Assembly (NCBI GenBank): GCA_963839345.1
Contig: CAWIUP010000003.1
Span: 448 to 64,447 of the forward strand
Reading direction: 5' to 3'
Source of the DNA: an uncultured Actinomycetota bacterium
Lineage (GTDB): Bacteria > Actinomycetota > Actinomycetes > Mycobacteriales > Mycobacteriaceae
Length of the DNA: 64,000 bases
Every line of letters begins with the position of its first letter. Position 1 is the first letter of the stretch. The position numbers and the translations under genes are program-made. Below are positions 3,899 to 24,998 of the stretch, one piece after another. Below the pieces are notes generated by a model. That model was given only the letters and a program-made list of their open reading frames with translations. It made no database searches and was not told where the DNA came from.

Positions 3899-4080
3899 GA
3901 CCTGTCCTCCCGTAGCGTCGCAGGCAACGATCGATTTGCTCGGTTTGCTCGTTTTGTGGCGTTCGTCGTGGAGCGCGCTCGCCGCTCGGGTACACGCCTC
4001 ATCGGGTCGAGCACTCCGGTGGCTGCGTTCACCTGCGATAGCGCCACAATCGCCAACCTCCCACAGCGGCGCACTCGGTA

Positions 4081-4100
4081 CCAGGGCCGAAGGTCCTTGG
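4081..4100. promoter_or_regulatory. DosR/DevR-box-like palindrome CCAGGGCCGAAGGTCCTTGG upstream of ppsA
   Basis: Resembles the DosR consensus TTSGGGACTWWAGTCCCSAA, lies about 180 bp upstream of the ppsA start, and sits among DosR-regulon-type genes. Confidence 0.6.
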
Positions 4101-4125
4101 AATTTGGGCGGGCGTACTTCTGTGG

Positions 4126-5337
4126 TCAATTGGCTGCCGCAGTGCTGGATTTGGCGCGAATCCAAGCAGCGATGGTGAGAGTGAGCAGAAGTGCTGCAAA
4201 GAAGCCACCGACGACTCCTGAGATCAGTAGCGGGAGTTGACCATTGGCCCCCCAGAGCAGACCGGCCCACAGACCTGCCGACAAAACCGCGAAGCCGGTC
4301 GTGCCCTGAAATATGCCTTGCGCACTCGACTGCAGCTCAGCCGGAACGAGTCCGGAGATCCATGCCTTTCCGACGCCGTCGGTGCACGCGGTGAACAGTC
4401 CATACAGCCCAAGGATGAGCCACGCCACGACCTTGTCGGTGGTGAGTCCGAGCCCTAGGTAACCGACCGCGAAAAAGGCCACGCCTATCCCGAACACCGC
4501 AGGTCTCGGGATGCGGTCAGCGAGGGCTCCGGCCGGGTAGCTGCTTAAGGCGTAAACCAAGTTGTATCCCACGTAGGCGAGTATCACTTCGGCCACTGAG
4601 AATCTGATTTCCCCGAGGCGCAACAGGATTAGGGCATCAGGAAAGTTGACGACGCCGAAAGCTGTCAGGAACACGACCGCACGCCAATACCGGCCCGGCA
4701 GTTCACGCAGGGACGCCGCCACCGGTCGTCGGTGCGCACGCTCTACCGGCCTGGGACGTTCCCGCACCAAAGCGACCAAGGCCACACTCAATACCGCAGG
4801 AATGATCGCGACATACAGCAACGGCGAAATCTTATGGTCGAGCAACTCATACCCGGCAAGCCCGATCAGCGGTCCGACGACGGCGCCGAGTGTGTCCATG
4901 GTGCGGTGAAACCCGAAGACGCGTCCGCGACTGGCTTCGTCGATTCCGGCTACCAATAGTGCATCGCGCGGCGCGCCCCGAACACCTTTGCCAACACGAT
5001 CGACCACGCGTCCCGTCAGCACCCCGGGCCACGTCCCGGCGACGGCAACAATGACCTTCCCGAGCGCGGCCATGCCATAGCCCGCCGCAATCAAAGGACG
5101 CCGTGCATACCTGTCCCCGAGTGGCCCGGCCGTCAATTTTGACAGCGACGCCGCCCCCTCAGCAGCCCCTTCGACGGCTCCTACCACGGCCGGCGGCGCA
5201 CCAAGGACTGCGGTGAGGTAGATCGGTAACAGCGGATACAGCAATTCGCTGGCGGCATCCTGAAGGAACGAAACAGCCGATAACACCCACACATTGCGGG
5301 TCAACCAGGCGCTGTTGCCAGCCGCAGGAACGATCAT
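4126..5337 (-). CDS. MFS transporter
   Basis: 403 aa with about 12 hydrophobic segments, an MFS loop motif (GPLGDRYARRP) and DRVGKGVRGAPRDAL. Confidence 0.92.
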   Translation of the reverse strand: MIVPAAGNSAWLTRNVWVLSAVSFLQDAASELLYPLLPIYLTAVLGAPPAVVGAVEGAAEGAASLSKLTAGPLGDRYARRPLIAAGYGMAALGKVIVAVAGTWPGVLTGRVVDRVGKGVRGAPRDALLVAGIDEASRGRVFGFHRTMDTLGAVVGPLIGLAGYELLDHKISPLLYVAIIPAVLSVALVALVRERPRPVERAHRRPVAASLRELPGRYWRAVVFLTAFGVVNFPDALILLRLGEIRFSVAEVILAYVGYNLVYALSSYPAGALADRIPRPAVFGIGVAFFAVGYLGLGLTTDKVVAWLILGLYGLFTACTDGVGKAWISGLVPAELQSSAQGIFQGTTGFAVLSAGLWAGLLWGANGQLPLLISGVVGGFFAALLLTLTIAAWIRAKSSTAAAN

Positions 5338-8400: not shown

Positions 8401-9088
8401 CCCGGGTGCGGATATCGGCCAGGTCGCGACCGCTCAGTATCGCGACGGCGCATTGCGACGCCAAGCTTTCCAGCGCCTGGTGCGCTCCGTCGACGAGCGC
8501 GGCGGAGCCGGGATCGGCAACGATCGGGGACAAAGTTCCGTCGTAATCGAGAAACAACACCGGTTCTCGGGCGCCCAGCACACCGACTATCTGACCGTAT
8601 GACTCCACCGCATCTGGAAGCTCCGACATCCGCCGGTGACCTGAGCGCACAGCGACCTCGTCCAGGTCCGCAACCACGGCATCGGCGCCGCACCTCAGCA
8701 GTCGGTCGGCATGCCCGGCGCGGTCGACACCGATGACAAGTGCGAATCCGCCTTCTTGGGCGGCCGCTACCCCGGCACCGGCGCCGTCGACGACGACGGA
8801 CCGTTGCGGATGCACACCAAGTCGGCGGGTGGCTTCGATGAGGGCCGCGGCCGGGACGCCATCGACACAGACGCCGAAAATGTCTCCGATCCCCGCGGAT
8901 TTCAAGAGTTGTTGACCGCCCGGGCCCAACGAGTAGACCGCGGTGGCGACTCCGACGTCCCGCAACTTCCGCACCAGGTTGATCGTCGACTCGAACACCG
9001 GAACACCATCGGTGTCGGTCAACACAGCGTCGAGGTTGAATATCACGGCGTCGTAGTAGCGTGGGTCGACAATGACCGGCAGCGTCAT
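5435..9088 (-). CDS. otsB1: OtsB1 (Rv2006)-like fusion: HAD/trehalose-6-phosphate phosphatase plus GH65 glycoside hydrolase/phosphorylase
   Basis: FLDYDGTL, IGDDLTDEDAF (trehalose phosphatase); ESLCTLGNGYFATRG, YRGHIFWDE, GPDEFH, KQADVLML (GH65). Start ATG 9088 overlaps the pfkB stop. Confidence 0.9.
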   Translation of the reverse strand: MTLPVIVDPRYYDAVIFNLDAVLTDTDGVPVFESTINLVRKLRDVGVATAVYSLGPGGQQLLKSAGIGDIFGVCVDGVPAAALIEATRRLGVHPQRSVVVDGAGAGVAAAQEGGFALVIGVDRAGHADRLLRCGADAVVADLDEVAVRSGHRRMSELPDAVESYGQIVGVLGAREPVLFLDYDGTLSPIVADPGSAALVDGAHQALESLASQCAVAILSGRDLADIRTRVSLPGIWYAGSHGFELTGPDGSYHQNEAAAAAVGVLERAAAELGGSLAEIPGVRLEHKRFAVAVHYRQVAPERIGEIVSATHKLAQRDGLRVTNGRMLVELRPDIDWDKGTTLAWIHDRIDATGSLLPIYIGDDLTDEDAFDAVAFDGIGIAVRHDEDGDRKTAARFALQGPDQVREFLQRGSAWLANKHQTSAKAWDFTFEGYDPQNEKLRESLCTLGNGYFATRGAAPESKADQVHYPGTYAAGVYNRLVDDLSGTKIDNESLVNLPNWLALTFRVDGGSWFDIDAVEVLSYRQTLDLRGAVLTREVRFCDDAGRTSSLTQQRFVAMHMSHVGALQTTIVAEDWSGTIEVRSTLDGNVTNSLVERYRDLANDHLELMGKREIDEHSVLLTVQTTQSRIPIAMAARSVVWRDGTPVPATYHFVDEAAEIGHDIAVELSVGDALTVEKVVTLFTGRDVATSEPAVDAQRWLSRLGHFAELRDGHVTEWAHLWERLSIEFEDFTDELRILRLHLLHLLQTVSLNSSDLDVGVPARGLHGEAYRGHIFWDELFIYPVLNLRMPTITRSLLGYRYRRLPEARHAAQAAGYSGAMFPWQSGSDGREESQRLHLNPRSGRWNPDSSARAHHIGIAVAYSAWKFYQVTGDLAYLIDYGAEMLAEIARFWVSRATYDQERERYSIRGVIGPDEFHSGYPDAPYDGIDNNAYTNVMAVWVIMRALDALKLLPLPNRLDLRETFGLHADELAHWEEVSRRMYVPFHDGVISQFEGYGELEELDWDGYRRQYGNIQRLDRILEAENDDVNRYKASKQADVLMLLYLMSSDELRELLDRLGYRFTPDQIPMTVEYYLARTSHGSTLSGVVHTWVLARANRDRALEFFQQVLKSDVSDIQGGTTSEGIHLAAMVGSVDLMQRCFTGMETRSNRIILSPHWPETLGVLAFPIHYRGLHLHLRVSGKGVIISMDPRDAAGVEVECRGRVVRLMPGTTVRFPG

Positions 9089-10119
9089 GGCGATGCCCCT
9101 GGTCGAGCGGACAACCATTGGTCTGCAGGTCGCCGCTCCCCGTCGTTGCGCCTCGGACCGTCGATGTTTATGGGGTCGGCGACCATCTCGAAAAGCCGCT
9201 CGACATCTCCACGGGTGCAGGGCGCGGTGCCGGGAGTCAGCAGCATGGCCGCACCGGCGGCCATGCCCAGCCGCGCCGCCTTGTGGAGTGGCCAGCCGCG
9301 GCTAAGGCCCACGGTGATGCCGGCGACCATGGCGTCGCCGGCGCCCACGCCGCTACCCGGAGGCACCATTACAGGCGAATAACGTTGGCTTCCATGGGGT
9401 GTAGCAAGCAGAGCGCCCTCAGACCCGAGTGACACGATGACGAACTGAGCACAGCCGCGGTCGACGAGTTCGTGAGCTGCGGCGAGTTGCTCTGACTCGC
9501 TGATGAGTTCCCGTCCGACACATTCGCGTAGTTCTCGCACGCTCGGCTTGAGCATAAATACGCCGGAGGAGATATGTCGCAGTCCCGCCCCGGAGGTGTC
9601 GAGAATCAGCAGCGCACCGCGCTCGCGACAGATGTCGGCGACCCGCTGATAGAAGTCATTGGGAACGCCGGGCGGCAGGCTGCCGCTCGCCACGACGAAG
9701 TCTGCGGATCCTGCCGCGGCGCTGAGCGTGTCGAGGCACTCGGTCTGCTCGGCATCGGTGAGCCGCGGACCTGGGAGCACGAACCGGTACTGCTGCCCGG
9801 TCCTGCACTCGTCCACGGTGAAGCTTTCCCTGGTGGAGTGAGCCACGGTGATCCGCTGCACCGGAACCCCCGAGTCAGCGACAAGATCGGTCACCTTCTC
9901 GCCCGTGTGGCCGCCCGCCGGAAAGATCGCCGATACCGGCGCGCCGAGCACGTGGGCGATTCGCGCGACGTTGATTCCACCGCCGCCGGGATCGTAACGG
10001 GGCAGCCCGCATCGCAATTTATCGGTGGGCATGACCCGATCGGTGTCCGTGGTGATGTCGAGCGCCGGATTCATCGTCAGGGTCACAATCGTGGCTCCCG
10101 ACTTGGTCGGTGATTTCAT
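9085..10119 (-). CDS. pfkB: 1-phosphofructokinase-family hexose kinase (PfkB, Rv2029c-like)
   Basis: TLTMNPALD, PGGGGINVAR, SGSLPPG, KPSVREL and GVGAGDAMVAG. Start placed at ATG 10119. Confidence 0.93.
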   Translation of the reverse strand: MKSPTKSGATIVTLTMNPALDITTDTDRVMPTDKLRCGLPRYDPGGGGINVARIAHVLGAPVSAIFPAGGHTGEKVTDLVADSGVPVQRITVAHSTRESFTVDECRTGQQYRFVLPGPRLTDAEQTECLDTLSAAAGSADFVVASGSLPPGVPNDFYQRVADICRERGALLILDTSGAGLRHISSGVFMLKPSVRELRECVGRELISESEQLAAAHELVDRGCAQFVIVSLGSEGALLATPHGSQRYSPVMVPPGSGVGAGDAMVAGITVGLSRGWPLHKAARLGMAAGAAMLLTPGTAPCTRGDVERLFEMVADPINIDGPRRNDGERRPADQWLSARPGASP

Positions 10120-10124: not shown

Positions 10125-11009
10125 CTACGCCGGATGCAGCGGTTGGCGGTAGACAGCGGCACCGGCAGTGACTCCCGCGCCGGCGGCAATGAGCAGAAGG
10201 CGGGCGCCCGGCGAGAGTTCTTCGCCCGCACAACTCAGTGCCGACACCAGCGAGGCGGTATGCATGCTCTCGTCGTCGGCGACGATGATCCGTTCCACCG
10301 GTATTGCGAGTTTGGCGGCCAGTGCCGCACGATAGCCGTGCCGGGCCGGCGAGGCGACGATGATGTCGATGTCGGAAAGGCCGAGCGCGGCCTCCTGAAG
10401 ACAGCTTTGGGCCACCTGGGCGCCGGCCTCGGCGAATTGCTCGTCCATCGCGGCCGACCCGCTGAATCGAAGCACATTACGCGCGTCTTCGAGTCCGACA
10501 GTGGCGCGGAAGCTCTCACCGTCATCGGGGATGTTCACCCAGTGCACACTGCCGAGTCCGGAGTCGTCCTCGCTCCAGTCGCACAACAGTGCCGCCCCGA
10601 CGGAGGAGAACGGAAAGTGCTCGCTCATCCCGTGCCCCGGGTCGGCGTCACTGGTGACGACCAGGGCGCAATTGATGGTGTGTGACCGCAGAAAGCCGTC
10701 GACGATCTGCAGCGCGGTGAGGATTCCGCACGTTCCGTTCGCTATGTCGAACGAGAACGTGCCGTGAGCATCGTCGTGTGGGTCCTCGGCGTTAGCCCCG
10801 ATGTCCTCCTGGATGAGCGCCGCGAGGGCCGGCTCGGCCAGATTCTTGTCGCGGTAGATGCCGGTATTGATCAGAAGGTCTACGTCGTCGGGCTCCCGGC
10901 CCGCTCGTTGCAGACAGCTCTTCGCGGCCGCGACCGCCAGACGCAGTGCGCTGTGACGGGTGCGCCAACCTGCTCGGGTAACGTCGAGGCGCTCAATCAC
11001 TGTGCCCAT
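10125..11009 (-). CDS. FabH/KAS III-fold protein with a non-canonical active site
   Basis: Collinear similarity to the neighbouring KAS III (FDIANGTCG vs FDLSNACAG; GAALL; HTASLVSAL; LIAAGAG). The catalytic His/Asn positions are not conserved. Confidence 0.75.
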   Translation of the reverse strand: MGTVIERLDVTRAGWRTRHSALRLAVAAAKSCLQRAGREPDDVDLLINTGIYRDKNLAEPALAALIQEDIGANAEDPHDDAHGTFSFDIANGTCGILTALQIVDGFLRSHTINCALVVTSDADPGHGMSEHFPFSSVGAALLCDWSEDDSGLGSVHWVNIPDDGESFRATVGLEDARNVLRFSGSAAMDEQFAEAGAQVAQSCLQEAALGLSDIDIIVASPARHGYRAALAAKLAIPVERIIVADDESMHTASLVSALSCAGEELSPGARLLLIAAGAGVTAGAAVYRQPLHPA

Positions 11010-12090
11010 AGCGACCTACCAAATCCTCGTCCACGATGAGGAGAACGACGCCGATCTCCAGACCTGATGCCAGCGCAATCAAGGCGACGGTTTCGCCCGG
11101 CCGGATCCGCCCGGCTTCGAGTTCTTCCACGAGGGCCACCGTGTGGGTCGTCGACGCTGTGTTTCCGTACCGATCGACGGTGATCACGGCGTCGTGCCGC
11201 GGGCTGTCACCCAGTGAAGCGGACACCGCGGCCATCCCCTTGCGTATCGCCCGGGCGGAGGTCTGATGCGTGATCACGTGATCGATGTCGTGCATCGCGA
11301 TGCCGGCTGCTTCGAGGACTTCGTGCAGTAAGAGCGGGGTGTCTGCAATGGCTGCCCGCTGGATCCCGCGGGAATCAGTAAACATCCGGGCACCGGGATC
11401 ATGCCCCTTCGGGTAGGCAAGGCACAGCCGGCTGTGGTCAGCAACCGTGGTGAAACCGGCGAGGCTGATGCCACCAGACTCGGAGGTGGCACGTTCGAGC
11501 AGAAGTGCCGCTCCCGCGTCGCCCAGTGTCAGGCAGGCGAGTTCTTTGCTCATGATGTTGTGGATATGCCGGGCCGCATTCTGGCCGAGTTGCGAGATGT
11601 ATTCGCCGCTGACCACCAAACCGCGCTCGACCCTTCCCTGCCGGATCCAATCGTTGAGCACCGTGACACCGGTCAGCATTCCAGCACATGCGTTGGACAG
11701 GTCGAAGGTCACTGCTTTCTCAGCCCCGATCGCACGGGCAACGGCACTACTCATCGTCGGCTCTACCCACTGCGTAAGGCCGCCACGAAACTTCGTGATA
11801 CTGCAACTGATCACCACATCGAGCGACGCCGCCTGCTGTTGTGCCTTGTCCAGGCAATCCAGCGCCGCCGAAGTTGCAAGGCTGTAAGAGTCCTCGTCGC
11901 CGATCGAGACGCGACGTTCGTAGATGCCGGTCAGTCGTTCCAAATCGATGTGCGTGTGATGACGCGTAGTCGCCATCAATTCGTCAGTTGTGAGCACAGT
12001 GGTAGGCAGATGCCGCCCAGCCCCGGCCAATCGGGCGCGAAAAGGCGCCGCGGGTCCATTACCCTCGATCACCAACCAGTTCTTGGGCAT
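10993..12090 (-). CDS. 3-oxoacyl-ACP synthase III (FabH-like) family protein
   Basis: Cys-His-Asn triad visible: NACAG, THQTS, YGNTAS. Also has the GDAGAALLL motif. Confidence 0.9.
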   Translation of the reverse strand: MPKNWLVIEGNGPAAPFRARLAGAGRHLPTTVLTTDELMATTRHHTHIDLERLTGIYERRVSIGDEDSYSLATSAALDCLDKAQQQAASLDVVISCSITKFRGGLTQWVEPTMSSAVARAIGAEKAVTFDLSNACAGMLTGVTVLNDWIRQGRVERGLVVSGEYISQLGQNAARHIHNIMSKELACLTLGDAGAALLLERATSESGGISLAGFTTVADHSRLCLAYPKGHDPGARMFTDSRGIQRAAIADTPLLLHEVLEAAGIAMHDIDHVITHQTSARAIRKGMAAVSASLGDSPRHDAVITVDRYGNTASTTHTVALVEELEAGRIRPGETVALIALASGLEIGVVLLIVDEDLVGRYGHSD

Positions 12091-12409: not shown

Positions 12410-13540
12410 TCAGGGCAGCGGTGCTGACCAGCGCAGCACGGTGCCTCCGCCGGGAGCATCCGCGATGCTGAACGCGCCGCCGGTCTGCTGCGCACGGTGA
12501 TGCAAGCTGGTCAAGGCACTGCCGGTGATGCCGCCGGCGACGCCTCGACCGTTATCGATAACCTCGATGCACACGTCGTCCTCAACCTTGACCGTCAGCG
12601 CAAGTGTGGTCGCGCCAGCATGCCGGACAGCGTTGCTGACCGCTTCGCGCACAACGGCTTCGGCGTGATCGGCGAGTGCAGCATCGACAACCGACAAGGG
12701 GCCCAGGAATTGAACTGTGGTACGCAGTTCGGATCCGCAGCACTGCGCGACTGCGTCGCCGAGACGCTGTCGCAGCCGGATGATGCCCGGCGGTGCGCCG
12801 TGCAGGTCGAAAATTGCGGTGCGGATCTCCTGAATGACGCCTTGAAGATCATCAATGCTGCCGGACAATCTCTGCTGCACCTCAGTTGATCGCGCCCGCT
12901 GAATGGTCCCCTGCAGAGCCAGTTCGACCGCGAAGATCTGCTGGATCACGTGGTGGTGCAGGTCGCGGGCGATCCTGTCGCGGTCAGCGAGAATAGCGAG
13001 TTCACGCATCTGGCGCTGCGTGGACCCCAGCTGCCAGGCGAGCGCCGCCTGGTCGGTGAATGCGGCCATCATGTCGAGTTGCTCGTCACCAAACGTCCGG
13101 GCGCCGGCATGCCGCAGCGCGACCAAAACCCCGGCCACGGCATCGGTGGTGCGCAGCGGAAGCACCAGCGCTGGGCCGGCATGTTCGACGCCGTCGATGG
13201 CGACGTCGAAGTTGTTGAGTCGTCGAGGGGTCCGCTCCACGAAGGCCTGCCCGATCGAAGTACCGGCGAGGGGGATGGCATGGGCCGGCGCCGAGGTCAT
13301 TGCAACACCGGCGGTTTCCACGATCATCAGATCGGCCACCTCCGACGTGGGTATGTCGTGGTTGATTGCGACGGCGAAAAGCGTGATTTCTGCACCCGTC
13401 AGCTTCAGCGCCTGTTGGACGATGGGCCGATATACCGTTGCGGGCATCGGCGCCGCAGAGTAGTTCGGTTCCGATATCACGCGTCGCTTCGCTACTTCAA
13501 CAGCAGACTTGGTCATTCCGATCACCTCAGATGTCGTCAT
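12410..13540 (-). CDS. DosS/DevS-like sensor histidine kinase with a single GAF domain (GAF-B + HisKA_3 + HATPase)
   Basis: EQLDMMAAFTDQAALAWQL, DRDRIARDLH, EAVVREAVSNAVRH, IEVIDNGRG and TVLRWSAPL closely follow the C-terminal part of DosS as recalled. Confidence 0.88.
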   Translation of the reverse strand: MTTSEVIGMTKSAVEVAKRRVISEPNYSAAPMPATVYRPIVQQALKLTGAEITLFAVAINHDIPTSEVADLMIVETAGVAMTSAPAHAIPLAGTSIGQAFVERTPRRLNNFDVAIDGVEHAGPALVLPLRTTDAVAGVLVALRHAGARTFGDEQLDMMAAFTDQAALAWQLGSTQRQMRELAILADRDRIARDLHHHVIQQIFAVELALQGTIQRARSTEVQQRLSGSIDDLQGVIQEIRTAIFDLHGAPPGIIRLRQRLGDAVAQCCGSELRTTVQFLGPLSVVDAALADHAEAVVREAVSNAVRHAGATTLALTVKVEDDVCIEVIDNGRGVAGGITGSALTSLHHRAQQTGGAFSIADAPGGGTVLRWSAPLP

Positions 13541-13618: not shown

Positions 13619-14512
13619 TCACGGGGTTCCAGCCGCCTTGATCTCGAGTCCGGCAACCAGGCCGTTCGCGAGCGGCTGCCAGGGTTGCGTTGACGTGTCG
13701 GCGCCATTCGCAGTGGTGACCGGTTGGGTCGGGGCCGCGGCGGCCGCACTTTCTCTGGCGAGGAAGGTGCCCAGTTCACCGATCGCACTCATTAGCGGCG
13801 CCGGGAACACGATGGTGGTGTTCTTCTCCACCCCGAGTTCGACAAGCGTTTGCAGGTTGCGCAGTTGCAAAGCCAACGGGTGCGCCATCATCGTGTCCGA
13901 CGCGTCGCCCAACGCGGCCGCTGCCATCGATTCCCCTTCTGCCGCAATAATTTTGGCGCGCTTCTCGCGCTCGGCCTCGGCTTGCCGAGCCATCGCGCGC
14001 TTCATGCTGTCAGGCAGCTGGATGTCTTTGAGCTCGACCAGTGTTACTTCGACACCCCATTCGAGTGTTGCGACGTCGAGGATCTTTCGGATATCGGCGT
14101 TGATCGCGTCGGTCTCCGATAGCGCCTGGTCAAGGGTGTGCTGGCCGACGACATTGCGCAGCGTGGTCTGCGCGATCTGGTTGATCGCGGCGTGGACGTT
14201 CTCGATGGCGATCACCGACTTCACCGGATCGACAACCCGGAAGTAGGCGACCGCCGAAATGTCGACGCTGACGTTGTCGCGGGTGATGATGCCCTGGGAC
14301 TGGATCGGCATCGTGACAATTCGCAATGAGACCTTCATCAGCCGATCGATGACCGGGATGATCACGGTCAGTCCGGGGTTCTTAACACCCACCACCTTGC
14401 CGAGGCGGAACAACACGCCGTTCTCGTACTGGGTCACCACTCTGAGCGACAGCGACAACGCGATCAGGGCGACAACGAGGAGAACGAGAACCAGGATCAT
14501 CAAAGCTTTCAT
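13619..14512 (-). CDS. SPFH/slipin (stomatin-like) membrane protein
   Basis: N-terminal TM segment, [26 protein letters not shown] and [16 protein letters not shown]. Start placed at ATG 14512. Confidence 0.93.
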
Positions 14513-15066
14513 GGCATGCCCTTCATCGATATCGAGGAATCTAGGGTTTGCCCTCAGTCGGCGATGAAGCCGTTGTTGCGCATGAGGGAATCTGCGAGGC
14601 GCGCCCGTCGTCGGAATCTGTTGCGCCAGCAGGCAGGTGGGTTGATGACCGCGGTACACATTGGTCACCATCGGCTCGTTGACCGGGTCGTCGAGCAGGG
14701 AAATGCCGGTGTTGGCACAGAAAAGCAAGTGAAGTGGTCATGGTGACCTGACGTGCATTGGATCACCGGGTGCGAGGGTCCGGAGCCAATGCTCCTTGAG
14801 TTTCGCGGCGGACGGCTGAACTCATCCCGGACCAGCTGACATTCTCAGCGCTCTTGACGCTACACCCGTTGGACGGCTCGCGGTGACCAAGCGACTCATC
14901 AATCCCGCGTCCCGTTGTCGGCGTAGCAAACTACAGGCGCGACACTGTCTTTCTGCTCCGCCGCCGGCGTACGATCAGCTTGACAACCATCTCGTGACGC
15001 TTGCGCCACGATGGCGCTGGGCTTCGGCGTCGATTCCCAGCTCCGCCACGACTATTAAGCGCAGGT

Positions 15067-16684: not shown

Positions 16685-17002
16685 GTCTGCTGTCCTCGAT
16701 CGTGCGGATGACCTTCTCCGTCGGCGTAATCCGTTCGACGAACACGTCATGCCACATGTGAACACCCTTCTGTTGCGGGCCGGGTCGTCGCGCGAGTCAT
16801 TGAGCTCCAACGGGGCCCGCGCGCCCGGCTCTCCCCAGACACCGAACGCTGCCAGGCTCTTACCACCGGCTGCACATCTGCAATCACCACGGCCACACCG
16901 GACTCGGCGGCCAACCACTGCTACCCGTGTGGCTGACCTGTCAGGTCAGAACATCTGGCCGGGGGTACCCGGCAGGTGTAGCGTTGTTGTTGTTGAGCCC
17001 TT

Positions 17003-17090
17003 CAGCCAGTCCGGAAAGAGTTTGGCTGCACGCCGCTAAACTTGATGAGCGTTTGCTCGCGCCGCACATTTCAACGTCTGCCCGTTGCAT
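17003..17090 (+). repeat. Copy A (most diverged) of a three-copy non-coding element
   Basis: CAGCCAGTCCGG-N16-CGCCGCT-N9-GAGC-GTTT-GCTCGCGCCG, the same block spacing as the copy at 21229. Confidence 0.7.
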
Positions 17091-17339
17091 TCGAAGACAG
17101 CATGCGCACTGCGCTCATTCCTCGTTCACCCGGAATTCGGAGGACCACCCACTCCGCGTTCACCCAACCCGATAGTGTCAGTTTGCCAATGATGCCGGTT
17201 ATACCCGCCCGTGCACCGAAGGGCGCGCCGATCAGCCGGGGGCAACGCCAAACCGGCGCGAGCCAAGCTAAATGACGCGTTCAATTACTGACCCGGGCAA
17301 TCCTCCTCCAAATATCCACGCAGAAACCAGGTAAACGTC

Positions 17340-17519
17340 ATGATCGGCCTCGGAATCATCCTTATCGTCCTCGGGCTCCTCCTCCCTGCACTCGTCCCTA
17401 CCTTCGCCTATGCCCATATTTGCTTGGTCATCGGGATCATCCTCCTCGTCGTCGGCCTGCTACTAATGCTGATGGGACGGATGGGACACGCCGTCGGCGG
17501 TCGCCGCCACTACTACTGA
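17340..17519 (+). CDS. Small membrane protein, DUF6131-like (59 aa; below the ORF-track cutoff)
   Basis: MIGLGIILIVLGLLLP...IGIILLVVGLLLMLMGRMGHAVGGRRHYY*: two TM helices and the characteristic VGGRRHYY tail. Confidence 0.85.
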   Translation: MIGLGIILIVLGLLLPALVPTFAYAHICLVIGIILLVVGLLLMLMGRMGHAVGGRRHYY

Positions 17520-17596
17520 CCCGCCCGATGTACTCCCCGGCTCGGCTAGCAGTGTCTGGCCGAGCCAGGTGACATGAACCCGAAAGAAAGAAAACG

Positions 17597-18844
17597 ATGG
17601 CGATTACTGACGTTCCGGCCTTCGCTCACCTGACCGACCCCGACATCGAAAATCTGGCCGTTGAGCTAGATGCGATCAGGCTGGACATCGAGGATTCCCT
17701 CGGCGAGCGCGACGCGCGCTACATCCGCCGCACCATCGCCGCGCAACGTGCTCTAGATCTCGCCGGCCGGCTCATGCTGGCCGGTAGCTCGAAACGCGCG
17801 GCATGGTGGGCGGGAACGGCGACGCTCGGTCTGGCCAAGATCATCGAGAACATGGAGATCGGCCACAACGTCATGCACGGCCAGTGGGACTGGATGAACG
17901 ATCCCGAAATCCACTCCTCGACATGGGAGTGGGACATGAGCGGGGCGTCAAAGCACTGGCGCTTCACCCATAACTTTCAGCACCACAAATACACCAACAT
18001 CCTTGGCATGGACGACGACGTGGGCTACAGCACCTTGCGAGTCACCCGTGATCAGCCTTGGAAGGGCTACAACATCGGCAACCTGCTGTTCAACACCATC
18101 CTGGCACTCGGATTCGAGTGGGGAATTGGCTTGCAGCCCATCGAGTTCGGCAAGATCCTCGAGGGCGGCTCTGATCGCGACGCCACCCTCCTGCAGGTGC
18201 GCGAGTTCTCAATCAAGGCCGGAAGGCAGGTGGTCAAGGACTACGTCGCGTTCCCGGCGCTGACCTCGCTGTCGCCGGTGGCCACGTACAAATCGACGCT
18301 GATGGCCAACATGGTGGCCAACGTGATCCGCAACGTCTGGGCCAACGCGGTGATCTTTTGTGGGCATTTCCCCGATGGCGCCGAGAAATTCACGAAGACC
18401 GACATGATCGGCGAAACCCGGGGTCAGTGGTATCTGCGCCAGATGCTGGGCAGCGCCAACTTTGAGGCCGGGCCGGCGATGCGGTTCATGAGCGGCAATC
18501 TGTGCCACCAGATCGAACACCACCTCTACCCCGATCTGCCCAGTAACCGGCTGCACGAGATCTCGGTGCGGGTCAGGCAGGTTTGCGACAAATACGACCT
18601 TCCGTACACCACGGGTTCGTTCCTGATGCAGTACGGCAAGACGTGGCGCACCATCGCCAAATTGTCGCTGCCGGACCACTACTTGCGTGACACCGCCGAC
18701 GACGCTCCGGAGACCCGCAGCGAGCGGATGTTCAGCGAACTGGAGCCCGGTTTCGCCGGGACCGACCTAGCCACAGGGCGCCGCCGCGGGCTCAAGACAG
18801 CGATCGCGGCGGTCCGCCAATGGCGCCGCGACCAGCGCAGATGA
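17597..18844 (+). CDS. Membrane-bound acyl-CoA/fatty acid desaturase (DesA3-like)
   Basis: His boxes HNVMH, HNFQHH and HQIEHH; N-terminus MAITDVPAFAHL typical of mycobacterial DesA3 paralogues. Confidence 0.94.
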   Translation: MAITDVPAFAHLTDPDIENLAVELDAIRLDIEDSLGERDARYIRRTIAAQRALDLAGRLMLAGSSKRAAWWAGTATLGLAKIIENMEIGHNVMHGQWDWMNDPEIHSSTWEWDMSGASKHWRFTHNFQHHKYTNILGMDDDVGYSTLRVTRDQPWKGYNIGNLLFNTILALGFEWGIGLQPIEFGKILEGGSDRDATLLQVREFSIKAGRQVVKDYVAFPALTSLSPVATYKSTLMANMVANVIRNVWANAVIFCGHFPDGAEKFTKTDMIGETRGQWYLRQMLGSANFEAGPAMRFMSGNLCHQIEHHLYPDLPSNRLHEISVRVRQVCDKYDLPYTTGSFLMQYGKTWRTIAKLSLPDHYLRDTADDAPETRSERMFSELEPGFAGTDLATGRRRGLKTAIAAVRQWRRDQRR

Positions 18845-18850
18845 CGGTGC

Positions 18851-18885
18851 GTTACTGGCCAGTAACCTACGGGACCGTAGGTTAC
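18851..18885. promoter_or_regulatory. Two overlapping palindromes (candidate operator): GTTACTGGCCAGTAAC and GTAACCTACGG-GA-CCGTAGGTTAC
   Basis: A perfect 16-bp palindrome at 18851-18866 and a perfect 11+11-bp inverted repeat at 18862-18885, in the gap between the desaturase and the hydrolase. Confidence 0.6.
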
Positions 18886-18951
18886 GTTATAGTCGGCTAG
18901 TAGTAGTCATGCCGGCATGGCAGAACACCCGTTGGATGGAGACCAGTTCAC

Positions 18952-19854
18952 GTGACCGAGATGAACTATCTCGATCTGCACGGTGAGCGTATTGCCTATC
19001 GGGACGCAGGGGCCGGCGAGGCGTTGCTGTTGATTCATGGCATGGCGGGAAGTTCGGCGACCTGGCGGGCGGTCATCCCTGAGTTGTCGAAGAAGTATCG
19101 GGTGGTGGCACCGGACCTGTTGGGGCACGGGGAATCAGCCAAGCCGCGCGGTGACTATTCGTTGGGTGCGTTTGCAGCGTCGCTGCGTGATCTGCTCGAT
19201 GAACTAGGCATCAGCCAGGCAACTGTGGTCGGTCAGTCACTCGGTGGTGGTGTGGCCATGCAGTTCACCTATCAACATCGCGACTACTGCCAGCGACTGG
19301 TTCTCATCAGCAGTGGTGGCCTCGGCCCCGACCTGAACTGGATATTGCGGATCCTCTCGGCCCCCGGAACCGAGCTGGTGCTGCCAGTGGTCGCGCCGCA
19401 GCCGGTGTTGAACGTCGGTAACAAGCTGGGGTCGTGGCTCTCGTCGGCCGGGATCCAGTCGCCGCGCGCCGGCGAGATGTGGAGCGCGTATTCGTCGTTG
19501 TCGGATCGGCAGACAAGGCAGGCGTTCCTGCGCACGTTGCGCTCGGTGGTGGATTACCGCGGCCAGGCGGTCAGTGCCCTCAGCAAGATCCATCTCAGTT
19601 ATGGATTGCCCACCTTGCTGATTTGGGGTGAGCAGGACCGGATCATTCCTGTCGCCCACGGCTACGCCGCTCACGACGCTGTGCCGGGTAGCCGACTTGA
19701 GGTGCTCGCCGGTGTCGGACACTTCCCGCATGTCGAGTCCCCGGCGGCGGTGGTGGACATCCTTGACGACTTCATCGCCACCACAGGGCGGGATGTCGAT
19801 CTGACGAATCGAAAACCTGATCTGAGCAGTCACCCAGCGGGAACGACCGGCTGA
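18952..19854 (+). CDS. Alpha/beta fold hydrolase
   Basis: LLIHGMAG, GQSLGGG nucleophile elbow, WGEQD and GHFPH. Confidence 0.93.
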   Translation: MTEMNYLDLHGERIAYRDAGAGEALLLIHGMAGSSATWRAVIPELSKKYRVVAPDLLGHGESAKPRGDYSLGAFAASLRDLLDELGISQATVVGQSLGGGVAMQFTYQHRDYCQRLVLISSGGLGPDLNWILRILSAPGTELVLPVVAPQPVLNVGNKLGSWLSSAGIQSPRAGEMWSAYSSLSDRQTRQAFLRTLRSVVDYRGQAVSALSKIHLSYGLPTLLIWGEQDRIIPVAHGYAAHDAVPGSRLEVLAGVGHFPHVESPAAVVDILDDFIATTGRDVDLTNRKPDLSSHPAGTTG

Positions 19855-20139
19855 TCACATTACTTCGTCATCGTCTTGCTCTCCTACATCGAACCGAGGC
19901 GCCGCCGCTACCGAATCCTGCACAACCAACGCGGCCCGCTGCTGGCCACAACAATTCGCGCACGCACCGACGCTATCGTCGCCACGCTTCCGATTCGCTT
20001 AGACTGAGCATCTGCCCACCCACTCCCGAGACTGCCGATCTGCGATCGACGTTCGTTGTGGCGGTACCCAAAGGTCCGATCCACAGGTCTTGACAATTAC
20101 TCCGGCGGGGTGGACCGTGAGGCACGTTGGGACTCTCAA

Positions 20140-20235
20140 CCAGTCCGGGACGGGTCAGCTGTCCGCCGCTGTCCTCGCAGAGCAGTAGCTCGCGCCCGAA
20201 CACACCGGTGACAACCGCATGTCGGGATCACCATG
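20140..20235 (+). repeat. Copy B of the three-copy element; ends at the STAS gene start codon
   Basis: About 80% identical by hand alignment to 21229-21324. Confidence 0.9.
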
Positions 20236-20718
20236 AAAGCTCCGCCCGCCCCGTCCTTGCCGCCGGCCGGCGGATTGTTTTCCCAGCCGTGGGAGAGTCA
20301 CACCATACGGTTAGCCAATCGTCGGCTGAGGTCATTGGTAGCTGTCATCAGCGTCCACGGCCACATCGATGCATCCAACGCTGAGACTCTGACCGAGTAC
20401 ACCCTGGAGCATCTGATGCGTTGCCGCGGGCTGATCCTTGATCTGCGCGGCCTGGATTTCTTTGCAACCGAGGGTTTCTCGGCGCTGCACAGGGTCTCCG
20501 TCTGCTGCGCGCGCGCTGGCATAGGCTGGGCCGTAGTATCCGGTGAGGCAGTCTCCCGGGTGCTGCGGATCGGCGATCCAGAGGGCTTGCTGCCCGCCGC
20601 CAGCACCGTCGAGGCAGCGATGGCGATCATCCAAGACGAGCCTCACCGTCCACCACGCCCATCGCGAGCCGCACAGACCCCGGACAACCCTCGAGATGCC
20701 AACGCACGGTGTGCTTAG
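20233..20718 (+). CDS. STAS-domain anti-sigma factor antagonist
   Basis: VISVHGHIDASNA...LILDLRGLDFFATEGFSAL...VSRVLRI; typical of mycobacterial Rv2638/Rv1904-type STAS proteins. Confidence 0.87.
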   Translation: MKAPPAPSLPPAGGLFSQPWESHTIRLANRRLRSLVAVISVHGHIDASNAETLTEYTLEHLMRCRGLILDLRGLDFFATEGFSALHRVSVCCARAGIGWAVVSGEAVSRVLRIGDPEGLLPAASTVEAAMAIIQDEPHRPPRPSRAAQTPDNPRDANARCA

Positions 20719-20904
20719 TCTGCGGCGGTACACGACAGATCCGGCACGAACACCAGACCTTGATAGAAGCGATCGCCAAGCTCGATTGTCCTGCGTTGTC
20801 GGTGGTTGACCGTGGGGTTCGAAGATGCGAAATCTGAGGTTGTGGAGTGCGGCGCCGGCAAGGAATCTCAAGACTTCGCGACAGCCTGAGCAGACCGCGA
20901 CCGC

Positions 20905-21188
20905 CTCCGCGTCGGGATCCTTTGTCGACCTCGCCACGGACCTCGCGTGCTCACCGCCCAGCCCCTGAGTGACTTAGTCCTCGATCAGCACCTGCCGCCC
21001 CTGCTGAACGGGGCGCCGCGACAAGCCTTTTCGAGGCGTCGGTCATCAACGAAGCCATCGGAGCCCTCATCGGCCAGGGCTACACGCGCAAGCAAGCCGA
21101 GCCTCGCCTCATCGCGGAGGGTGACGACGCCGGTATCAGTCGGCACGCCGTCGGCCTGCGCATCCTGGCCGGGCTCAATGCGCGGTAG
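20905..21188 (+). pseudogene. Frameshifted, 5'-truncated remnant of an ANTAR protein paralogous to 16064-16684
   Basis: TTTGTCGACCTC...CTCGATCAGCACCTG...GCGTCGGTCATCAAC matches 16370-16520. It encodes FVDLATDLA / LDQHL / ASVINEAIGALIGQG in different frames. Confidence 0.8.
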
Positions 21189-21228
21189 CCGCTCATCGGG
21201 TGTAACCTCAGTAAGGTTAGGAACCCAG

Positions 21229-21324
21229 CCAGTCCGGGATGAAGTCAGCCGTCCGCCGCTGATCTCGCAGAGCAGCAGCTCGCGCCGGACACGTCGGTGA
21301 CAATCTTCCGTTGGGATCACCTTG
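21229..21324 (+). repeat. Copy C of the three-copy element; ends at the GT4 TTG start
   Basis: Aligns with 20140-20235; the start codon falls at the same position after GGGATCACC. Confidence 0.9.
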
Positions 21325-22503
21325 AGCGCTCTATCCACCCTTGAAATGTCGCATACCCCTGTTGTCGGGCAAGGCCCTTGCGGCTCCGCGAGTTTCAGCA
21401 TTCTCAGTACGTATCCACCGACACCGTGCGGGCTTGCGACATTCACTGCGGCCTTGTCGGAAGGGTTGTGCGCGAATGGCTCCGACGTCAGCGTCGTGCG
21501 GGTGGCCGACGGGTCGTTATCTTCTGACGCCCGGGTGATCGGAGAGCTGGTCAACGGTTCGGCGACATCCGTGGCTGCAACCTCCGAATTGCTGAACGAG
21601 AGCGACATCGCGGTAATCCAGCATGAGTACGGCATCTACGGCGGTGTCGACGGAGACGAGGTGATGGACATCGTCGGCGGGCTGCGCATCCCGTCGATCG
21701 TGGTCGCTCACACGGTCCTCAAAGACCCGACCCCGCATCAGCGTTGGGTGCTCGAGGCGATCGCGGCGATGGCGGCTCAGGTGGTTGTTATGTCGGAGGC
21801 GGCCAGTCAACGCCTGTGTCTCGACTTCGACGTCGATCCCCGCAAAGTCAGCACGATCTCGCACGGCGCGACCGTCCCGAGGCGGCTCGCCCCGCCGGCG
21901 CGGTCGGACAGGCCGACGTTGTTGACATGGGGCCTCCTAGGTCCGGGAAAGGGCATCGAGCGGGTCATCGACGCGATGGGTTCGCTGCACGACCTTCCGG
22001 TCCGGCCGCGCTACCTGATAGCCGGCCGGACGCACCCAAAGGTTCTCGCCGCCGATGGCGAGGCATACCGCAACGCCCGTGCCGAACAGGCGCGGCTCAG
22101 CGGCGTAGCGGACTCGGTGTCCTTTGACGCCAGCTACCGCGACGTGGCATCGCTGACGGCGCTTATCCAGTCCTCAGCCGTGGTCGTGCTGCCCTACGAC
22201 TCCACCGATCAGGTCACCTCCGGTGTTTTGGTAGACGCCATCGCGAGCGGTCGGCCGGTCGTAGCCACCGCCTTTCCGCACGCCGTCGAGCTCCTCGCTA
22301 GCGGGGCGGGCATCGTCGTCGGCCACGACGACCCGGATGCGCTGGCGTCAGCCCTGCTCCGGCTCCTGACCGAGCCGCACCTCGCCGCGACGATGGCCGC
22401 CGAGGCCGTGCGATTGGCCCCACGGATGGCGTGGCCGATCGTGGCGAACGCCTATCTGGATCTGGCACACCACCTTCTCGGTGAGCGTCCGGCGATGGTA
22501 TGA
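21322..22503 (+). CDS. Glycosyltransferase family 4 (GT-B)
   Basis: STYPPTPCGLATF, QHEYGIYGG, WGLLGPGKGIE, SGVLVDAIASGRPVVAT. Confidence 0.92.
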   Translation: MSALSTLEMSHTPVVGQGPCGSASFSILSTYPPTPCGLATFTAALSEGLCANGSDVSVVRVADGSLSSDARVIGELVNGSATSVAATSELLNESDIAVIQHEYGIYGGVDGDEVMDIVGGLRIPSIVVAHTVLKDPTPHQRWVLEAIAAMAAQVVVMSEAASQRLCLDFDVDPRKVSTISHGATVPRRLAPPARSDRPTLLTWGLLGPGKGIERVIDAMGSLHDLPVRPRYLIAGRTHPKVLAADGEAYRNARAEQARLSGVADSVSFDASYRDVASLTALIQSSAVVVLPYDSTDQVTSGVLVDAIASGRPVVATAFPHAVELLASGAGIVVGHDDPDALASALLRLLTEPHLAATMAAEAVRLAPRMAWPIVANAYLDLAHHLLGERPAMV

Positions 22504-23523
22504 CCGCCACGGTGTCGGACCTGAGATTCGACCACCTGTTGCATTTGACAGACCGTCGCGGCACGTTCGAGCATGCCTGTTTCGCCGAACCCCGGCCCGA
22601 GCACGGCTACTGCACCGACGACATGGCCAGGGTTCTCGTCGTCGCCACTCGAGAGCCCAACTCTGGTGGGGAAGTCAACAGGCTTGCGCGCGTGGCCATG
22701 CAGTTCCTGAACGATGCGCAGTCCTACGCCGGTGCCTGCCGAAACCGGATGGACAGCAAGGGCCGTTGGGAGGATGAGCCCTCCCTGGAGGACTGCTGGG
22801 GGCGCTGCATCTGGGGACTGGGAACTGCCGCTGCGCACAGTGACGTCTCTCTGGTTCGCCGGTTGGCCGTCATTCAGTTTGAACGGTCCGCGAAGGTGCG
22901 ATCGCCGTGGCCTCGGGCAATGGCGTTCGCGGCGATAGGCGCTGCCGAACTCCTCTCCGTCGACCCCGGGCAACCGGCGGCACGCGCACTCCTCGCCGAC
23001 TACGCCGAGACGGTGGCCAAACCCAACGGCGACGCGTCCTGGCCATGGCCTGAGGCGCGACTCACCTACGCGAATGCGGTTCTCCCCGAGGCGATGATCG
23101 CCGCGGGCGTTGCGCTCGACGATTCCACACTGCGGTACCAGGGTTTGGATCTGTTGGGTTGGCTGGTCGAATACGAAACGGCAGGGGGGCACCTCTCGCC
23201 CACTCCCGCATGCGGGCAGAGGACCGGACGACCTTCGGCCCGCGTTCGATCAGCAGCCGATCGAGGTGTCCACCCTCGCCGACGCGTGCGCACGTGCCGC
23301 TGCCATCGACACCGGTTCGATCTGGCCCGACGGGGTCCTGGCCGCTGCGGCCTGGTTCATGGGTGACAACGACGCGCAACAGCTCATGTGGGACCCCGAG
23401 ACCGGCGGCGGATTCGACGGCCTGCAAGCCGATGGGGTGAACCGCAACCACGGCGCGGAGTCGACACTGGCAGTGCTCTCGACGATGCAGCACGCTCGAC
23501 GCTTCTCGACTGTGCGGCAATGA
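22500..23523 (+). pseudogene. GT4-associated (alpha/alpha)-barrel-like conserved protein, frameshifted near 23214
   Basis: ORF 22500 (HGYCTDDMAR, EDCWGRCIWGLG, LTYANA, HLSPTP) continues in another frame as FDQQPIE...GFDGL...NHGAESTLA* ending at 23523. Confidence 0.8.
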
Positions 23524-24998
23524 CTTCCGTGCAGGCTGGGCTCGTCACGCGCAGCCCCCAGCGGCTCGCGGCCAACCCGTCGCGAGTCATCACCCGACTC
23601 TTTGTGCCAGGCCAGGAAGGTTTCGAGCATCAAGAGTCCCGGGCAGGAGCGGTGCTGGCGCGGATCCTGGCCCTGGACGAAGGGCAGGTGCGGTCTTCGT
23701 TAGACGATGTCGTCACACGCTTCGACGAACGTCACCGCGATCTGGCTGACACCTTCCGCCGGCACGCCCGTGAACTCGCCGATCGGCTGGATCCCGACTG
23801 GGAACTCTCCGAGGTGCGAAAGTTGTTGCTGGGCGCGGCATTCACCAGCGAATACGCCATTGAAGGTGCAGCGTTGTGCAACCCCAGCATCGTGGCCCAT
23901 CCCGACCAGGCTGCAACCATCGCAGGTAGCTTGCGATTCGTGATGAGCGTGCGGGGCATTGGCGAGGGGCACCATTCGTCCATCGGGTTTCGGACCGGCG
24001 TCGTCGACGCAGCCGGTGGCATCGCGATCGACAACCCTGCTCCGTTCGCCACCGCCGGATCACCCAAGCCCGCCCTCCTCGAAGCAGCCGTCTTCCGCAG
24101 TGAACTCGCCCGGCTCGACGACGCCGGAGAGACGGCCGACTACGTCCTCGACCGGCTCGGCCAAAGCTTCACCCGAGCTGCTCTTGATCAACAACTCACC
24201 CAGCTCCAGACTCATCTGAGCACCCGCGGACACGCCGAGGAGACGATTTCCTCAATCCGTAGCATCGCCGAGCGGACGTATGCCATCGAATTCTCCGACC
24301 GCATAACACTTTCCGAGCGGGTCCTGTGGCCCTCGATGGGCGCAGAGCAGGCCGGCATGGAGGATGCACGCTTCGTCCGTTTCATCGACGACGACGGCTC
24401 CATCACGTTCTATGCCACCTACACGGCCTACGACGGATCCCACATCAGCCAGCAACTCCTCGAGACCACTGATTTCCAGTCCTTCACCTCCGCGCCGATC
24501 GTCGGACGCGCCGGTGCCAATAAGGGCCTGGCGCTGTTTCCTCGCCGGATTCACGGTCGCTTCGCCGCCATGTCGAGATCAGATCGCGAGTCGAATACGG
24601 TTGCCTACGCCGATCATCTGTCCGTTTGGCCGAGTGCGCTTCCCTGCCAGAGCCCGACCCGAGCCTGGGAGGTGTTACAACTCGGGAACTGCGGTCCGCC
24701 CATCGAAACCGACGCCGGGTGGCTGGTGCTCACCCACGGAGTCGGTCCGATGCGCACCTACAGCATCGGGGCGATTCTGCTTGATCTCGACGATCCGACA
24801 CGGATTATTGGTCAGCTACCGCAACCGCTACTGAGCCCCGCAACTGATGAGCAGGACGGCTACGTGCCCAATGTTGTCTACTCCTGCGGCGCACTAGTCC
24901 ACGCCGACACCCTGGTGCTGCCGTACGGCATTTGTGACGCCGCCATCGGTATTGCCACAGTGCCGCTACCCGAACTCCTTGCAGCTCTGAGCCGCTGA
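23520..24998 (+). CDS. Glycoside hydrolase family 130 protein (mannoside phosphorylase/glycosidase-like)
   Basis: EYAIEGAALCNPS, MEDARFVRF, NKGLALFPR, LGNCGPPIET, HGVGPMRTY and YVPNVVYSCG. Start ATG 23520 overlaps the upstream stop. Confidence 0.9.
   Translation: MTSVQAGLVTRSPQRLAANPSRVITRLFVPGQEGFEHQESRAGAVLARILALDEGQVRSSLDDVVTRFDERHRDLADTFRRHARELADRLDPDWELSEVRKLLLGAAFTSEYAIEGAALCNPSIVAHPDQAATIAGSLRFVMSVRGIGEGHHSSIGFRTGVVDAAGGIAIDNPAPFATAGSPKPALLEAAVFRSELARLDDAGETADYVLDRLGQSFTRAALDQQLTQLQTHLSTRGHAEETISSIRSIAERTYAIEFSDRITLSERVLWPSMGAEQAGMEDARFVRFIDDDGSITFYATYTAYDGSHISQQLLETTDFQSFTSAPIVGRAGANKGLALFPRRIHGRFAAMSRSDRESNTVAYADHLSVWPSALPCQSPTRAWEVLQLGNCGPPIETDAGWLVLTHGVGPMRTYSIGAILLDLDDPTRIIGQLPQPLLSPATDEQDGYVPNVVYSCGALVHADTLVLPYGICDAAIGIATVPLPELLAALSR

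Follow-up and report, generated by a model that had tools for sequence, protein, structure and literature searches.

The window analyzed here is a 64-kb stretch (64,000 nucleotides) of a contig from an uncultured member of the Mycobacteriaceae. Within 7 kb of this window, a non-coding element recurs at the starts of unrelated genes, in a neighbourhood that also encodes ANTAR-domain proteins and a STAS anti-sigma-factor antagonist. An initial annotation had described three copies of the element. The repeat is real and the three copies align, but the count was short, because a search of the genome with a covariance model (R1) found a fourth. We refer to the copies as D, A, B and C, and consider it highly probable that they represent a genuine, undescribed family of promoter-proximal structured leaders, which gate translation initiation through a terminal hairpin, P4.

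Copy B (20104-20245, forward strand; R1 score 143.5 bits) directly begins the STAS gene (20233-20718, forward strand; Pfam STAS, E = 1.2e-8; TIGR00377). Copy C (21194-21334, forward strand; 136 bits) directly begins a gene for a GT4 glycosyltransferase (21322-22503, forward strand; Pfam and NCBIfam). The two copies had been estimated to be about 80% identical, and BLAST indeed gave 81% identity over 99 nt (20140-20235 against 21229-21324). In both copies GGGATCACC stands directly 5' of the start codon, which is ATG at 20233 in copy B and TTG at 21322 in copy C. Copy A (16970-17090, forward strand; 66.2 bits, E = 4e-15), which has orthologous copies in L045 and L062, retains CCAGTCCGG, CGCCGCT and GAGC-N4-GCTCGCGCC in register, and a MAFFT alignment of the three copies showed these blocks to be common to all. 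The GAGC-N4-GCTC hairpin with its varying loop was likewise found in the copies, as was a further hairpin, which is GGTGA...TCACC in copies B and C. Copy D (14729-14871, reverse strand; 90.9 bits, E = 5e-22), the additional one, lies upstream of a 66-codon open reading frame (ORF) and an SPFH gene. BLAST against the own genome retrieved only copies B and C; copies A and D required the covariance model. The window contains 3 matches to the pattern CCAGTCCGG-N8-30-CGCCGCT, versus 0.01 expected, and none of 100 shuffles reached 3.

The extent of the element also had to be revised. The blocks noted initially stood, but in the alignment of homologues conservation begins about 35 nt further upstream, with a GGTGTAnnnT block that forms a -10-like G-TANNNT box and is followed by a hairpin, P1. 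The complete unit consists of this box, a spacer, and a leader of about 120 nt that comprises P1, a three-way junction in which a helix termed PJ closes over the hairpins P2 and P3, the hairpin P4, and the start codon. P1 has the consensus GUUGGG...CUCAAC or CCCAGC, with a loop of 3-5 nt. It is followed by CC, the PJ 5' strand GUCCGG, and GAUGA, while the PJ 3' strand CCGGAC comes after P3. PJ is formed by the CCAGTCCGG block with the GCGCCGGAC block, a pairing over about 110 nt. P2 has a stem of 5-9 bp and an 8-nt loop, (C/U)GUCCGCC, and P3 is GAGC-N4-GCUC. P4 is made up of GGUGA(C/U), an inner CCG...CGG stem and GA-UCACC, and in its 3' half lie a Shine-Dalgarno (SD)-like GGGA and the last 5 nt ahead of the start codon. 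The sequence (g)GGAUCACC plus AUG, UUG or GUG is kept in front of unrelated ORFs. What had been described as a two-hairpin element is, by covariation, four hairpins' worth of leader, in which a long-range helix closes a three-way junction. The proposal that the last hairpin encloses the ribosome-binding site (RBS) was borne out, as the SD-like GGGA lies within P4 and the start codon follows immediately.

In copy B, P1 spans 20126-20140, the PJ 5' strand 20143-20148, P2 20152-20175 (loop UGUCCGCC at 20160-20167), P3 20180-20191, the PJ 3' strand 20196-20201 (with a C.A mismatch), and P4 20207-20232, with GGGA at 20224-20227 and ATG at 20233. Copy C has its -10 box TAACCT at 21203-21208, P1 at 21215-21230, PJ formed by 21232-21237 with 21285-21290, P2 at 21241-21266, P3 at 21270-21281 and P4 at 21296-21321, with GGGA at 21313-21316 and TTG at 21322. 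The minimum free energy fold of copy C is exactly the comparative model. Copy D, on the reverse strand, has by alignment and fold a -10-like TAGCGT at 14862-14857, P1 starting at 14849, P4 as GGUGAUC...GGUCACC, and ATG at 14741-14739. Copy A has a -10-like TAGCGT at 16979-16984 and retains P1, PJ, P2 and P3, but its P4 is swapped for the hairpin CAACG-UCUGCC-CGUUG at 17072-17087, which the initial annotation had noticed in its DNA form (CAACG-TCTGCC-CGTTG). The orthologues of copy A also keep the sensor part and carry this different hairpin in place of P4. The sensor domain therefore occurs with at least two different 3' platforms.

R1 was built from 15 sequences and holds no PJ pairs, so that PJ provides an unbiased test of the fold. 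We counted covariation on 80 homologues aligned to R1. In this alignment, 92.5% of the pairing cells were occupied by pairs, and compensatory changes were present in 23 of 32 pairs, versus 10.7 +/- 1.7 in shuffles, with none of 500 shuffles reaching the observed number and slid controls giving at most 15. The compensatory pairs included 5 of 6 in PJ, 6 of 6 in the outer P2 helix, and 2 of 3 in the inner P2 helix. In distant homologues PJ varied as GUUCGG/CCGAAC, GUCCAG/CUGGAC, AUCCGG/CCGGGU, ACCCGG/CCGGGU, GCCCGG/CCGGGC, and GUUUGG/CCGAAC. In P1 a pair alternates between U.G, C-G and U-A (32, 29 and 16 sequences, respectively). This alternation is strand-specific and indicates that the conserved entity is RNA rather than DNA. 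The element is thus a structured non-coding cis element on the plus strand of each gene, as had been proposed. The alternative of a DNA operator, which the initial annotation had kept in reserve, is contradicted by the strand-specific wobble pairs and by a helix that spans about 110 nt. We also tried to join the P2 loop to the SD region in a pseudoknot, and to pair the GGUGUA box with segments downstream of it. Both pairings were compatible with some classes of copies, but without consistent covariation, and were rejected. No U-tract terminator was found downstream of the leader.

The element is widely distributed and not confined to this locus, with hundreds of copies in Mycobacteriales. BLAST searches of 60 relatives found homologues in 11 genomes, with up to three per genome. 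The covariance-model search, which had been recommended at the outset, detected the element with R1 in 203 of 401 genomes of the genus. The copies number as many as 8 or more per genome and are frequently grouped in islands and divergent pairs. In a sample of the order, 31 of 301 genomes were positive, representing 20 of 82 genera and several families. Exact-pattern scanning of genome contigs was abandoned as too loose, since the matches in these GC-rich genomes were mostly due to chance. A comparison with Rfam, also suggested earlier, gave no match over the element in Rfam 15 at E <= 10 with lax filters, whether 10 kb or 151 nt was used as input, and literature searches found no description of the leader family. 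One genome of the genus, 4.4 Mb in a single contig (G287; loci L231-L239, e.g. L232), keeps 8 leader copies amid genes, SPFH among them, that appear broken up, which is reminiscent of reductive decay.

These data bear on the least credible of the explanations that we considered, which we regard as very nearly discounted: that the repeat is an operator or promoter at the DNA level only, or else a neutral local duplication, a decayed coding sequence or a mobile repeat. The copies do cluster within 7 kb here, and their similarity extends about 12 nt into the ORFs. The starts of the unrelated ORFs behind the leader share (A/U)UGA-N5-CUC(C/U) (20233-20245, 21322-21334, and 14741-14729 on the reverse strand), so that either conservation or an ancestral duplication unit extends a few codons into the coding sequence. 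However, this explanation does not agree with strand-specific covariation that includes G.U pairs, or with a 110-nt long-range helix. Local neutral duplication or coding-sequence decay, which the initial annotation had named as the case against itself, is further contradicted by orthologous copies in front of orthologous genes in more than 200 species and in 20 genera. Moreover, the plasmid search gave 0 matches to the element, and no open frame is conserved through it.

The box at the 5' end of the unit has the most invariant positions of the element. In the 80 homologues, G9, A11 and T15 of G-TANNNT are invariant (80/80) and T10 is present in 88%, while the NNN positions are variable. The spacer between the box and P1, of 6-8 nt (7 nt in the alignment of the 80), is variable in sequence too. 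In the 70 nt of upstream flank that we inspected, no conservation across classes was seen upstream of the box. In M. smegmatis, (T)ANNNT is found at -6 to -13 in 79% of transcription start sites, where it is sufficient alone and lacks a -35 consensus (PMC6448022). By the sequence criterion for SigA-type promoters, (T)ANNNT 6-13 nt upstream of a purine +1 (PMC6448022), the box matches the consensus, with the +1 being a prediction. The STAS-class copies have a weaker GANNNT box, and all of them have a perfect TTGACA exactly 17 nt upstream, as a promoter would need. In copy B, this promoter-like region (20090-20118, forward strand) comprises TTGACA at 20090-20095, the 17-nt spacer and the -10 sequence GACCGT at 20113-20118, with a predicted +1 at about 20124-20126. 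We therefore read the G-TANNNT box as the probable -10 element of a sigma-A-type promoter, from which transcription would start two to three nucleotides before P1. An E. coli-type promoter scan found nothing, but such a scan is uninformative for TANNNT promoters.

Two more specific promoter types were considered and rejected. The resemblance between GGGTGTA and GGGTAT had raised the idea of a SigF promoter (GTTT-N15-17-GGGTA(T)), but there was no GTTT at the right spacing and no common upstream block. A DosR box (TTSGGGACTWWAGTCCCSAA) was considered on account of a nearby DosS-like kinase gene, an OtsB-GH65 gene and universal stress protein (USP) and ATPase targets, but no box was found near the leaders. 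GGGAC-N4-GTCCC with up to 2 mismatches was found upstream of none of the copies, and its total in the window was below that in shuffles. The sole match inside a copy, with 2 mismatches, is at 20152-20165 in the P2 region of copy B.

It is conceivable, though improbable in our view, that the promoter is all that is regulated. Control would then be exerted at transcription only, by the promoter together with a sigma or transcription factor, and the fold would be constitutive, with P1 setting mRNA stability and translation fixed at a low level. The near invariance of the -10-like box and the predicted position of P1 at the very 5' end are compatible with this, and the cluster's STAS antagonists and GAF-HisKA_3 kinase suggest control at the level of sigma factors or a two-component system. 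Against it, junction and P2 loop sequences are conserved across families far beyond what stability would need, and the classes have in common neither an upstream operator nor a -35 element, nor is the promoter of the SigF or DosR-box type.

The initial annotation had placed the element among three ANTAR genes. This number does not hold, because one of them is a frameshifted remnant and another is ANTAR-like only below threshold. The intact gene encodes the GAF-ANTAR regulator P0003 (15001-15870, forward strand; Pfam ANTAR E = 3.9e-17, GAF_2 E = 8.8e-15), the candidate reader of the leader. Between it and copy A lies the gene of a divergent ANTAR-like protein, P0002 (15938-16684, forward strand), with a Pfam ANTAR match of E = 0.0014 and 18.8 bits versus a cut-off of 27.3, and a BLASTP match to P0003 of E = 2e-4. 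The order of GAF-ANTAR gene, P0002-type gene and copy A is also present in G004 and G013. The remnant (20760-21188, forward strand) is of the P0002 type, broken across three frames according to three-frame translation, and ends 14 nt before the box of copy C. In relatives the P0002-type gene upstream of copy C is intact, and its 3' end is conserved before GT4 copies in a dozen genomes. A P0002-type protein is present in only 5 of the 36 genus genomes compared, and we rejected it as a universal partner of the leader.

The proposed connection of the element with ANTAR genes as such is well supported. At least 25 copies of the element, in at least 19 genomes from several families, have a gene with the ANTAR domain (PF03861) no more than 1.5 kb away, against an expectation of about 0.5. 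In class-3 GT4 copies, the stop codon of the GAF-ANTAR gene lies inside the -10 box, and in class-2 GT4 copies the P0002-type gene ends 14 nt before the box. In other genera the element stands immediately before GAF-ANTAR genes. G602 has an element on either side of its GAF-ANTAR gene, with the next gene behind the second element; in G671 an ANTAR gene is preceded by two elements, and a GAF-ANTAR gene and a weakly ANTAR-like gene lie just upstream. The latter arrangement mirrors the order of GAF-ANTAR gene, ANTAR-like gene and copy A in the window. The ANTAR proteins next to leaders are 50-66% identical P0003 orthologues, although there are 3-22 ANTAR paralogues per genome. The element and a P0003-type orthologue (threshold E <= 1e-40) also co-occur: among 36 genus genomes, 13 had both, 2 the element only, 2 the protein only and 19 neither (Fisher p = 4e-6, a value that ignores kinship). 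Among 42 genomes, none carried the element without encoding any ANTAR protein.

Together, these observations suggest a mechanism in which each copy would be a self-contained expression unit. Transcription would start from the -10 box a few nucleotides before P1, and the leader of about 120 nt would follow. P4, when closed, would block translation initiation, and the junction domain, acting as a sensor, would determine whether P4 remains shut. Its reader would most likely be P0003-type GAF-ANTAR proteins, perhaps with a P0002-type partner, whose genes neighbour the element and in some cases follow it. The outcome would be a single signal-responsive translational regulon of stress-type operons, comprising GT4/GH130 genes, a STAS antagonist, USPs, SPFH, a P-type ATPase, DUF6131, and ANTAR genes. 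That the leader is read by GAF-ANTAR proteins, and hence is a non-canonical ANTAR target, is a suggestion that we make tentatively, on the strength of genomic association.

Several points weigh against a structured leader that is read by GAF-ANTAR proteins. Folding energies were no better than those of shuffles (z ~0, in a GC-rich background), so that the structural case is comparative and not thermodynamic. In 30 of the 80 homologues, copy B among them (20145 with 20199; columns 42 and 159 of alignment A9), C stands opposite A at the third PJ pair, while the remaining members have C-G, U-A or U.G. A scan for dual ANNGNN hexaloop hairpins, the hallmark of known ANTAR targets, found 0 in or near the four leaders. 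In G005 and G020, which have the element, no P0003-type orthologue reaches E <= 1e-40, and many copies are not next to an ANTAR gene. Finally, the linkage could stem from co-inheritance of one island, or the ANTAR genes could be regulated members rather than readers.

The chief competing reading is that of an orphan riboswitch, which seems to us less likely than a GAF-ANTAR reader. PJ, P2 and P3 would then form an aptamer for a small molecule, an ion, a second messenger or a proton, the ligand would set P4, and the ANTAR and STAS genes would be members of the regulon. The leader indeed combines a conserved aptamer-like domain backed by covariation with a platform that overlaps the SD sequence, the combination by which riboswitch-type leaders are recognized: covarying helices surround conserved junction and loop nucleotides, and one sensor domain is joined to either of two 3' platforms, P4 or the copy A hairpin. 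The regulon is multi-copy and consists of mixed genes over many genera. The position of the element upstream of ANTAR genes in G602 and G671 indicates that such genes can be targets. The recurrent C.A in PJ might be a pair that responds to protonation, or else a functional weak spot of the helix. On the other hand, none of the gene associations (GT4, STAS, USP, SPFH, ATPase and others) indicates a ligand, the adjacency to one GAF-ANTAR subfamily across families is left unexplained, and a -10 box in fixed register with the RNA would be unusual for riboswitch families. Whichever the reader, we lean toward the view that the leader represents a type of sensor RNA that is new, being either an orphan riboswitch with a three-way-junction aptamer, whose C.A in the closing helix might be sensitive to protonation, or the first non-hexaloop ANTAR target, read asymmetrically by a GAF-ANTAR/ANTAR-like pair. 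In either case it would exert translational control, across Mycobacteriales, over a dormancy-type stress regulon of USP, SPFH, P-type ATPase, STAS and GT4 genes.

The region around the start codon raises the question of a partner acting in trans. The 6C small RNA (sRNA) reportedly binds multiple mRNAs via C-rich loops in mycobacteria, and the conserved G-rich CGGGAUCACC adjoins the start codon behind the leader. An sRNA with a C-rich loop, of the 6C/B11 type for example, might pair with the G-rich SD region, with the leader fold displaying the site. We consider this quite unlikely, as it would leave both the conservation of the three-way junction and the ANTAR linkage unexplained. As a separate observation on this region, the last 9 nt of the leader, GGGAUCACC (20224-20232 and 21313-21321), match the 3' tail of this genome's own 16S ribosomal RNA, ..UGGAUCACC|UCCUUUCU, in 8 of 9 positions (16S gene at G000:C2:22307), so that the P4 3' arm mimics the ribosomal RNA segment adjoining the anti-SD sequence. 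The P4 5' arm, GGUGA(U/C)C, is complementary to the same 16S segment, in the manner of an extended SD sequence, and in copy D GGUGAUCC is a perfect 8-nt complement of it. Judging from this complementarity, the P4 5' arm might possibly serve as a ribosome standby or SD site.

The genes behind the leaders are varied. In the window, the GT4 gene begun by copy C is followed by the rest of its operon, a gene of unknown function and a GH130 gene (22500-23366 and 23388-24998, forward strand). The same operon lies behind the element in relatives, and the GT4/GH130 operon is the most frequent downstream case. The ATG of copy D begins the 66-codon ORF (14541-14741, reverse strand), which was identified by translation and is poorly conserved. 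Relatives have ORFs of 37-44 codons at the same position before the SPFH gene. The SPFH/Band 7 gene itself (13619-14512, reverse strand; Pfam PF01145, E = 1.6e-40) encodes a stomatin/HflK-like protein. Copy A is followed by a 57-codon ORF (17102-17275, forward strand), whose N-terminus M-R/Q-x-x-L-I-P is common to the G013 copy, and then by a DUF6131 gene (17340-17519, forward strand), a desaturase gene and a hydrolase gene.

Further downstream classes in other genomes comprise USPs, a DUF998 protein, unknown small proteins, and ANTAR genes. In one class, by inspection, a membrane protein with no Pfam match is followed by an Fe-S subunit resembling that of succinate dehydrogenase/fumarate reductase. 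In another, an ORF of about 50 codons (..QYFPIxSVxCLL..), again with no Pfam match, lies between the leader and a P-type ATPase gene. This small ORF, M-T-T-P...PKPAPAQYFPIESVLCLL..., is found at L065:1370-1513 (reverse strand) and at the same position in L033, L043, L044, L072 and L078. Since it is conserved at the amino acid level, it is probably real, either as a small protein or as a regulatory upstream ORF.

Elsewhere in the window, on the reverse strand, are genes for PPDK (1502-4270), a fusion of an OtsB-type trehalose-phosphatase with GH65 (5435-9118), a FabH-like pair (10125-12090), and the short DosS-like GAF-HisKA_3-HATPase kinase (12410-13540). The gene set of the window looks like one of dormancy or stress character. 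A weak Rfam match to the ASdes TB sRNA lies antisense in the GT4 gene (21843-21910, reverse strand); with 27.1 bits versus a gathering threshold of 40 (E = 0.0085), it is probably due to chance.

The potential significance of the leader follows from the numbers of ANTAR proteins. The genomes analyzed encode 3-22 each, mostly linked to GAF domains, but predictions give each genome just a few canonical targets. The leader is a concrete candidate for what GAF-ANTAR proteins read, with a defined fold, occurrence in roughly every second species sampled from the genus and in 20 other genera, a physical linkage to one GAF-ANTAR subfamily, and a position before genes typical of dormancy or stress physiology. 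If a small molecule were the reader instead, the leader would add a new class of riboswitch, in an order of clinical and environmental importance. With either reader, RNA databases would gain a family, and the stress regulon a further layer of control after transcription.

Compared with known systems, the leader has most obviously to be set against the ANTAR-target RNAs. A canonical target consists of two hexaloop hairpins with A1/G4, separated by a linker of 2-25 nt (PMC8164766). Mycobacterial ANTAR proteins repress translation at RNAs that overlap the RBS (PMC8164766; bioRxiv 660928), and mycobacterial ANTAR domains are mostly GAF-linked, with only four canonical targets predicted in M. smegmatis (bioRxiv 660928). 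Like the EutV/NasR/AmiR type of target (Mehta et al., PMC8164766, bioRxiv 660928), our element is a cis leader with tandem hairpins, is encoded beside ANTAR genes, and serves a multi-target regulon, and like actinobacterial targets in particular it would act by covering the RBS or start codon. The loops differ, however, and the caveat raised on them by the initial annotation was justified: P2 has 8 nt and P3 has 4 nt, without A1/G4 hexaloops. P2 and P3 stand in tandem with a linker of 6-8 nt (definition in PMC8164766), but both are arms of a three-way junction closed by PJ, a 6-bp long-range helix. P3 overlaps neither the RBS/AUG nor a terminator, and the RBS is covered by P4, a separate SD-sequestering hairpin. 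The leader further has an extra 5' hairpin and a -10 box of its own. By the published definition the leader falls outside the canonical ANTAR-target family, though it may work in the same way.

Three-way-junction riboswitches that act on translation, such as the purine, thiamine pyrophosphate (TPP) and c-di-GMP-I types, resemble the leader in having a closing helix, two arms, conserved junction and loop nucleotides and then an SD-sequestering helix, and they too can govern multi-copy regulons. The leader differs from them in lacking an Rfam match, in a gene set that holds no metabolic clue, and in its tight linkage to a protein regulator family. The third comparison is with protein-binding autoregulatory leaders. 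The rpsO/S15 leader of mycobacteria is said to belong here, a folded 5' untranslated region that sequesters the RBS and has a protein as its reader. Our leader likewise is a folded 5' untranslated region that sequesters the RBS, and in G602 and G671 a regulator gene lies behind its own element. Unlike autoregulatory leaders, however, it is one leader family for many unrelated operons, and the candidate binder is a signal-sensing GAF-ANTAR protein rather than the product of each gene.

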